Program-made: the position numbers and the translations under genes
Shown: positions 2,788 to 2,941 of the stretch, in pieces
How the letters are laid out: every line of letters starts with the position of its first letter
How positions within the stretch are numbered: the stretch's first letter is position 1
The notes under the pieces: model-generated
What the model was told of the DNA's origin: nothing
Seen by the model: the letters and a program-made list of their open reading frames with translations, nothing else
Databases searched by the model: none
IMG/VR virus record: IMGVR_UViG_2698536369_000013
Location: 1-7,991 of that record
Strand: one strand, 5' to 3'
Length of the DNA: 7,991 nucleotides
Source: a virus
Taxonomy: Duplodnaviria; Heunggongvirae; Uroviricota; Caudoviricetes

Positions 2788-2860
2788 GCCGATTTAACTT
2801 AGCAGACAAAGCAACTGACTTGTAATCACCGGGTCGCCAGTTCGATTCCGGTAATCGGCA
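2788..2860 (+). tRNA. tRNA-like element, probably a degenerate or non-canonical tRNA (anticodon loop CTTGTAA would read UGU)
   Basis: Perfect 7-bp acceptor stem (GCCGATT / AATCGGC), canonical T-loop TTCGATT, and correct 73-nt spacing. But the anticodon stem has only 3 pairs, the D-stem 3 pairs, G19 is replaced by A, and no CCA is encoded. Confidence 0.3.
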
Positions 2861-2866
2861 CTATAT

Positions 2867-2941
2867 GCGGGTATCGTATAATGGCTATTACCTCAGCCTT
2901 CCAAGCTGATGATGCGGGTTCGATTCCCGCTACCCGCTCCA
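2867..2941 (+). tRNA. tRNA-Gly (anticodon UCC), glyT-like, with encoded CCA
   Basis: Hand fold: acceptor GCGGGTA / TACCCGC (7 bp), anticodon stem TCAGC / GCTGA with loop CTTCCAA (U33, anticodon UCC, A37), T-arm GCGGG-TTCGATT-CCCGC, discriminator U73, CCA at 2939-2941. Sequence is near-identical to E. coli glyT as I recall it, differing by a compensatory pair in the acceptor stem. Confidence 0.85.

Follow-up and report, generated by a model that had tools for sequence, protein, structure and literature searches.

A host-derived tRNA-Thr/tRNA-Gly cassette in the late region of a phiP27-like Escherichia coli prophage

Why does a prophage late region hold a tRNA-Gly(UCC) gene with a tRNA-like element directly in front of it, and does that element still make a tRNA? 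The question is raised by positions 2,788 to 2,941 of IMG/VR virus record IMGVR_UViG_2698536369_000013, of which positions 1 to 7,991, analysed here as a whole and called the window, span 7,991 nucleotides (nt). A sequence-only reading had recognised the tRNA-Gly and left the upstream element as a pseudo-tRNA, a non-canonical tRNA or a remnant integration target. On alignment with E. coli K-12, the upstream element is a copy of the host gene thrU, that is, a tRNA-Thr(UGU) gene and not an unknown tRNA-like relic, an identity which that reading, judged by the same alignment, had missed. Whether the copy still works is a separate matter, on which the evidence is divided. The two elements are the following.

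2788-2863, plus strand: diverged copy of host thrU, tRNA-Thr(UGU)-like (Rfam 45.9 bits; called by ARAGORN only once its threshold is relaxed; 13 differences from K-12 thrU in 76 bases)
2867-2941, plus strand: tRNA-Gly(UCC), a glyT copy with U6-A67 and an encoded CCA (ARAGORN; Rfam 65.6 bits; 2 differences from K-12 glyT)

The two tRNA elements and their host origin

ARAGORN at default settings made a single call in the window, tRNA-Gly(tcc) at 2867-2941 on the plus strand, and the Rfam tRNA model RF00005 (gathering score 29) agreed with it, giving 65.6 bits over 2867-2938, compared with 64.9 bits for the host glyT. The canonical tRNA-Gly(UCC) proposed from the letters alone was thus confirmed, and so was its description as a near copy of glyT: the alignment with K-12 glyT is identical at 73 of 75 positions, and the only differences, C6U and G67A, turn C6-G67 into U6-A67 and are compensatory. 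Four regular cloverleaf arms are formed. The identity elements of the E. coli glycyl-tRNA synthetase (GlyRS) are U73, G1-C72, C2-G71, G3-C70, C35 and C36, and all these positions, together with the encoded CCA, can be read in the window sequence. An allele survey was carried out on 123 prophage cassette copies, the window copy included; the tRNA-Gly is identical to that of the window in 86 of them, and U6-A67 is present in nearly all. These results show that the tRNA-Gly copy is structurally intact and conserved across prophages. Judged from its sequence, it is very probably functional, in which case it would be expressed and charged and would add decoding capacity for GGA and GGG codons.

The sequence-only reading had proposed to check the codon usage. 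When the closely related prophage of strain SE11 was compared with the flanking host genes (Fisher test), GGA and GGG accounted for 36% of the Gly codons in the prophage versus 20% in the host genes (p = 1.4e-7), and ACA and ACG for 55% versus 41% of the Thr codons (p = 2.5e-4). These shares fit a codon-supply role, of which they are no proof.

The signal of the upstream copy is weaker, 28 bits below the 73.8 bits that Rfam gives for host thrU. ARAGORN at default settings made no call for 2788-2863 and named it tRNA-Thr(tgt) at the 95% threshold (-ps95), and the PGAP annotation of the listed carrier genomes gives tRNA-Gly only and omits the upstream copy. The degenerate tRNA-like element that had been noticed directly upstream of tRNA-Gly is therefore real. 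Compared with K-12 thrU, the 13 changes are C6T, G10A, C13T, T16C, G19A, T20C, G22A, G42C, T43C, A44G, A49G, G67A and C75T; the SE11 allele lacks the last two of them (G67A and C75T).

In the related prophages, an annotated pair of tRNA-Thr and tRNA-Gly lies at the same place, and in the relatives L003 and L004 the tRNA-Thr in this slot is identical to K-12 thrU at all 76 positions. In the host, thrU and glyT belong to one operon with the gene order thrU-tyrU-glyT-thrT; MG1655 has no UGU tRNA other than that of thrU. Sequence comparison thus shows that both cassette genes derive from the thrU and glyT of this operon, without tyrU and without the host flanks. Capture of the host flanks or of the host promoter was considered and rejected, since the prophage resembles the K-12 locus nowhere outside the two tRNA genes.

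The thrU-TAT-glyT junction pattern was found in more than 119 IMG/VR contigs, a lower bound. Among the GTDB species representatives it was found only in E. albertii, in E. ruysiae and in one stray contig. In 5,421 complete E. coli genomes, about 1,150 glyT-like sites remain once one is allowed for each genome. Annotated Thr-Gly or Arg-Gly pairs are present in isolated phages and in the SerU-LTIIb record; no window-type thrU allele was found among the isolated phages of INPHARED, where the best match was 90.9%. A literature search on SerU-LTIIb, on the tRNAs of LT-II, Stx2e and Stx2k prophages and on ileZ/argO yielded nothing on a Thr-Gly cassette. Given that the cassette is common and publicly annotated, and that phage-flanked glyT/thrU/argO copies have been reported in Shigella by McDonald et al. 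2015 (PMC4539685), the tRNA-Gly finding is not new, and the view of a Gly(UCC) here as a "different solution" was overstated. The cassette is ordinary prophage tRNA cargo of a known kind, with one testable twist, the change in the anticodon stem of the thrU copy.

A relic or a working tRNA-Thr

In the thrU copy the anticodon stem retains 3 of 5 pairs, A27.C43 and C28.C42 being mismatched through changes in the 3' strand only. The D stem contains an A10.C25 mismatch, A replaces G19, and the encoded 3' end reads CUA, not CCA. With the A52.C62 mismatch of the T stem, which host thrU shares, the copy has four non-canonical stem pairs versus one in thrU. Thermodynamic z-scores of single sequences proved uninformative, as the minimum-energy structure of thrU itself is no cloverleaf, and for this reason the fold was assessed by the energy of the cloverleaf minus that of the minimum-energy fold. 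The upstream copy gave -8.6 kcal/mol for the cloverleaf and -20.2 kcal/mol for the minimum-energy fold, a gap of 11.6 compared with 1.3 for thrU. This cost arises because A44G creates the new ACCGG (41-45), which pairs perfectly with the T-stem strand CCGGU (61-65); the predicted minimum-energy fold consists of the acceptor stem and one long 3' hairpin. The Rfam bit score was also considered as a pseudogene test and found not decisive, since other prophage tRNAs score 44-62 bits.

On these sequence features we lean towards the reading that the thrU copy is non-functional or nearly so, most likely a relic. Following the short-stem change G42C/U43C, the window lineage would also have lost G10-C25, G19 and the encoded CCA, and the copy would probably yield no useful tRNA-Thr, being merely co-transcribed and cut away when RNase P matures tRNA-Gly. 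It is because of these further lesions (G10A, G19A and CCA to CUA) that a relic is rated likelier than a working tRNA that escapes a nuclease, the alternative weighed below. Degeneration is also supported by SE11, in which the copy lies in a prophage remnant lacking the whole early region, and the insertion sequence (IS) just upstream in the window was counted on the same side.

A number of observations weigh against a relic. RF00005 matches 2788-2860 at full length (model positions 1-71) with E = 1.6e-7, above the gathering score. The acceptor stem has 7 of 7 Watson-Crick pairs, the T-loop is the canonical UUCGAUU, and the anticodon loop CUUGUAA is intact, with the anticodon UGU, U33 and A37 kept. 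The arms had been described from the letters as a perfect acceptor stem and T-loop beside a decayed anticodon and D-arm, which is correct for the first two and for the D-arm lesions and incorrect for the anticodon, where only the 3' strand of the stem is altered. The identity positions of threonyl-tRNA synthetase (ThrRS) are G1-C72, C2-G71, G35 and U36, and the copy keeps all of them. Moreover, functional phage tRNAs may score low or depart from "universal" rules: a prophage tRNA-Lys reaches 44.4 bits, and the tRNA-Thr21 of phage 21, whose protective effect others have demonstrated, has C14 and reaches 61.5 bits. The divergence itself also bears marks of constraint: G22A occurs alone in 3 contigs, an intermediate toward the window allele, where it is compensated by C13U, and U6-A67 (C6U with G67A) is found in an otherwise intact thrU copy (L053) as well. 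In simulations, two or more compensated pairs arose by chance in only 3-6% of cases, so the structure was probably under selection during part of the divergence.

The last point against a relic is the anticodon-stem change. Killing by the nuclease P2-OLD results from cleavage of the host tRNA-ThrU in its anticodon stem, where paired CNG motifs are cut 3' of C28 and of C40. Phage-encoded tRNA-Thr(UGU), including that of the lambdoid phage 21, rescue cells because they are cleavage-resistant, for which an altered CNG motif and a shortened anticodon stem are needed together (Govande et al. 2025, PMC12445682). In the window copy, G42C/U43C converts C40-A41-G42 into CAC and removes the pairs 27-43 and 28-42, leaving the 5' motif C28-U29-G30 unchanged. 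With the motif altered and the stem shortened, the change therefore shows, on paper, both features on which P2-OLD resistance depends. The upstream element might accordingly be a working nuclease-resistant tRNA-Thr(UGU), which would decode ACA when OLD or a similar stem-cutting nuclease destroys the host thrU tRNA; on sequence grounds we entertain this only tentatively. In its favour, the mechanism and the resistance rules are published and the stem change fits both (PMC12445682), position 43 is changed in both resistant tRNAs that were tested (U43A in Thr6 and G27.A43 in Thr21), and Thr21 has a changed G42 as well. With 12 differences from thrU, Thr6, which does work as an escape tRNA, has diverged about as far as the window copy with its 13, and the compensatory changes elsewhere in the window lineage point the same way.

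A dedicated scan showed that the stem change recurs. A pyrimidine at position 42 together with U43C (G42Y/U43C) was present in 32 IMG/VR contigs, which represent at least 10 haplotypes and several genomic contexts. Most of these copies have 2-5 differences from thrU and are otherwise near-identical to it, and ARAGORN called all four minimal variants that were tested. No compensating change at positions 27 or 28 was found among the close thrU copies with G42Y/U43C; the short stem is therefore a stable state. Such a pattern among the alleles would be expected under selection for a short stem with an altered CNG motif. The same sequences could also reflect a single origin of the 42/43 change that was spread by recombination, or a templated mutation, since through the change 39-TCACCAG-45 becomes identical to 47-TCACCAG-53; both would speak against reading the recurrence as nuclease escape. 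We also considered that the change was a chimera from a donor with a compensating 27/28 change, which was not supported, as a scan for GRTGACTTGTAATCAYC gave only unrelated tRNAs, identical to thrU at 56 of 76 positions at most; a more distant donor is still conceivable.

Several results weaken a link to OLD for the window allele in particular. Its lesions G10A, G19A and CCA to CUA, and the A44G behind the competing ACCGG/CCGGU helix, are absent from the minimal variants, and its 5' CNG motif is unaltered. A P2 old gene (nucleotide identity of 85% or more) is rare, with matches in just 17 of the 5,426 complete E. coli genomes, and Gam, the trigger of OLD, was not annotated in the one complete carrier prophage examined, which has a Rac-like early region. 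Separately, a paper on bacterial Schlafen gave no link to tRNA-Gly or tRNA-Thr. Given the evidence on both sides, there is perhaps some chance, judged on sequence, that the G42Y/U43C copies (the 32 IMG/VR contigs and the window lineage) are a natural series in which a minimal two-base edit of the host gene makes a tRNA-Thr(UGU) resistant to Toprim nucleases that cut the anticodon stem, P2-OLD and its relatives, with the window element still a working escape tRNA. If this were true, the cassette would serve defence evasion as well as codon supply. Since the short-stem variants coincide with the resistance rules of P2-OLD, they allow one to test, cheaply and directly, if editing two bases of a host tRNA suffices for escape.

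As a separate observation, the anticodon arm of glyT (L006:874-948) and of its prophage copy (window 2893-2909) has A37, and its C28-A29-G30 pairs with C40-U41-G42. A paired CNG motif of this kind is what Govande et al. give as the P2-OLD substrate signature (PMC12445682), where tRNA-Gly is not mentioned. As thrU and glyT both bear the paired motif and A37, both copied host genes fit the OLD substrate rule.

Two other readings are much less probable than a relic or an escape tRNA. The upstream element could be an RNA with another role, such as a tRNA-like handle that positions RNase P or RNase E for tRNA-Gly, or a decoy for a tRNA-binding nuclease or modification enzyme. The parts recognised by RNase P (acceptor stem and T arm) are exactly those kept, the element lies 3 nt upstream of tRNA-Gly in all carriers, and the predicted fold of acceptor stem and long 3' hairpin was counted in favour; but in relatives an ordinary thrU copy suffices, which makes a special handle unnecessary, the element has no conservation beyond its descent from thrU, and no precedent for a handle or decoy was found. 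We regard such a role as improbable. The remnant integration target of the sequence-only reading, that is, an attB/attP scar of another mobile element, we consider hardly credible and reject. General background speaks for it, as tRNA genes are common integration sites, and the same window contains an IS element; however, the copy is full length (1-76) and no 3' fragment, it lies inside the late operon and not at a prophage end, and many prophages have, between the same flanks, an intact gene for tRNA-Thr, tRNA-Arg or tRNA-Lys in the homologous slot. A relic of thrU remains our preferred reading of the window copy.

Cassette architecture, prophage setting and slot variation

Around the two tRNA elements, the following features were identified.

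2686-2713, plus strand: putative sigma-70-like promoter, TTGAAA, 16 nt, TAATAT (consensus scan, 9 of 12 matches)
2721-2785, plus strand: leader hairpin from the fold, 5' arm CGGTTCC and 3' arm GGAACCG, closing 2 nt before the first tRNA
2864-2866, plus strand: TAT spacer between the two tRNAs, invariant in all retrieved copies (the spacer was part of the junction pattern used to retrieve them)
2965-2993, plus strand: conserved hairpin region and T-rich tract downstream of tRNA-Gly, with a terminator-like match at 2965-2983
3223-3251, plus strand: strong intrinsic-terminator-like hairpin and T-run, ACCGCCTCCACCGGGCGGT then TTTTTTTATT, with the terminator-like site at 3223-3241

The leader hairpin is present in 82 of the 123 surveyed cassette contexts. 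Its arms covary among prophages (GGTTCC...GGAACC versus GGTTCT...AGAACC) and its loop is hypervariable. Despite divergent surroundings, about 70 of these 82 contexts have a TTGNNN-16/17-TAWYAT pair whose end lies 7-8 nt upstream of the hairpin. Possible roles of the hairpin are transcript stability, processing by RNase P or RNase E, or attenuation. Downstream of tRNA-Gly, the arrangement GCACTG-hairpin-GGGA...GTTTT is kept in two sequence types with different stems, and 2965-2993 is possibly a weak terminator or a processing site. Without Q antitermination, the cassette transcript likely ends at the hairpin at 3223-3251, which forms a convergent pair of strong terminator-like hairpins with one at 3271-3295 on the minus strand. 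In the SE11 relative, no gene is annotated between tRNA-Gly and TerB.

From this layout we infer an autonomous transcription unit embedded in the late operon. The cassette would be a "moron"-like passenger of the late region, flanked by the DNA methylase on one side and the TerB, holin and endolysin genes on the other. Its own sigma-70-type promoter (2686-2713) would start the transcript at the foot of the leader hairpin; this transcript would comprise the thrU copy, the 3-nt spacer and the glyT copy, from which the tRNAs would be released by RNase P and 3' trimming. The host origin and the architecture of the cassette are held with high confidence. The cassette shows cleanly how temperate phages acquire tRNAs, as exact copies of two genes of one host operon, repackaged behind a phage promoter and leader.

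The window covers late-region DNA of a phiP27-like lambdoid prophage of E. coli. The gene order is an IS629-like element, a DNA methyltransferase, the two tRNA elements, the TerB and DUF3927 genes, two holins, an M15 endolysin and the small terminase subunit. In P27, the slot after the methylase holds ileZ and argO, followed by stx2e. Upstream of the cassette lie the following features.

1-1310, plus strand: IS629-like insertion sequence of the IS3 family, outside the cassette (95.8% identity to IS629 of phage BP-4795 over 1-1315)
336-452: ALIL frameshift pseudoknot of the IS629-like element (Rfam, 116 bits)
1560-2606, plus strand: DNA methyltransferase gene, the upstream neighbour of the cassette (open reading frame, ORF; homologues in SE11, STEC313 and P27 annotated as DNA-methyltransferase)

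The IS629-like element is complete and interrupts a small leader "ORF" of 198 nt upstream of the methylase; homology to the SE11 prophage begins at 1311, within this ORF of SE11. In the complete relative L005, the 198-nt "ORF" lies between the Q gene and the methylase, and SE11 retains it without the Q gene. A terminator-like hairpin at its end (1396-1413) may be a candidate for the tR' of the late operon. With the IS in place, the late genes are probably no longer coupled to the Q-dependent promoter, and the prophage may therefore be defective. The SE11 carrier (L130, SE11 chromosome 2122893-2151461) is a late-region-only prophage remnant reaching from the methylase through the tail fibres; it is bounded by an IS5-family element beside ompC and has no early or regulatory region.

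The following alleles of the thrU slot were distinguished among the 123 copies.

Identical to host thrU: 54 of 123
T16C/T20C: 23 of 123
Window type or SE11 type, window copy included: 7 of 123
G35U (anticodon UUU, Lys): 6 of 123
G35C (Arg UCU, SerU-LTIIb): 1 of 123

G35U together with A26G yields a tRNA-Lys(UUU) in L042, L063, L078 and L080 (for example L042:3480-3555, minus strand), and this tRNA adjoins another tRNA-Lys(UUU) that is unrelated to it. PrrC and PARIS are known to target tRNA-Lys(UUU). G35C yields the tRNA-Arg(UCU) of phage SerU-LTIIb (L001:1122-1194); such natural changes of anticodon parallel the one from Arg(UCU) to Thr(UGU) that Saks et al. reportedly obtained in the laboratory in 1998. 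Chimeric tRNA-Thr genes also occur (L012:1215-1290, L127 of E. albertii, L133-L141 and others), in which positions 1-17 are identical to the tRNA-Thr21 of phage 21 and the remainder is thrU-like with U42/C43 and G49. They are preceded by tRNA-Asn, as in phage 21, and followed by tRNA-Gly, and in 13 chimera contigs an added T68C changes G5.U68 into G5-C68. Strain 401651 (L005:4168-4242), a carrier of the window-type thrU allele, has a tRNA-Gly copy with A14G at a near-universal position, which may be a sign that decay in this lineage extends to the whole cassette. The thrU slot is thus seen evolving in plain view, through host-identical copies, anticodon switches, phage 21 chimeras, short-stem variants and degenerate forms, and such alleles are silently dropped by automated pipelines.

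Comparison with known systems

The closest counterpart is the host thrU-tyrU-glyT-thrT(-tufB) operon, which contains the same two genes, with 76 of 76 positions identical in the thrU copy of the relatives and 73 of 75 in the glyT copy of the window. The cassette lacks tyrU, the 116-nt tyrU-glyT spacer and thrT, and the flanks, promoter and leader of the host operon are unrelated to its own. Host thrU is separated from the window copy by 13 changes, and host glyT from nearly all prophage copies by U6-A67.

McDonald et al. 2015 (PMC4539685) described copies of glyT, thrU and argO lying together in Shigella and O157 with phage genes flanking them; the glyT copies were identical and the thrU and argO copies variable, and they were read as retained for foreign codon usage. 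That description does not include the promoter and leader architecture, the anticodon-stem variants or the degenerate copies missed by gene finders.

The ileZ-argN-argO and ileZ-argO clusters of Stx phages (933W and phiP27) occupy the same slot, with Q and the methylase before it and toxin or lysis genes after it, and have the same presumed role as decoders of A-ending codons rare in the host. They consist of tRNA-Ile(CAU) and tRNA-Arg(UCU) and are not homologous to the thrU and glyT copies of the window. Homology of the window elements to ileZ and argO of P27 and 933W was considered and rejected, as ileZ and argO of P27 align poorly with both elements, which match thrU and glyT instead.

The cluster of 8 tRNAs in T4-type phages encodes a host-related tRNA-Gly(UCC) and tRNA-Thr(UGU), about 82% identical to the window pair. 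These phages are virulent, their Gly and Thr genes are separated by tRNA-Pro and tRNA-Ser, and they represent an independent sequence lineage.

The P2-OLD-resistant Thr6 and the tRNA-Thr21 of phage 21 (PMC12445682) resemble the window copy in their UGU anticodon, thrU-like body, shortened stem and altered CNG near the cleavage sites. The gene for tRNA-Thr21 also lies, like the window pair, in the late operon just before the lysis genes, while Thr21 is only distantly related in sequence to the window copy. Compared with Thr6 and Thr21, the window allele is changed in the 3' strand only (G42C/U43C), has lost two pairs rather than one, and carries additional lesions in the D-arm and the CCA.

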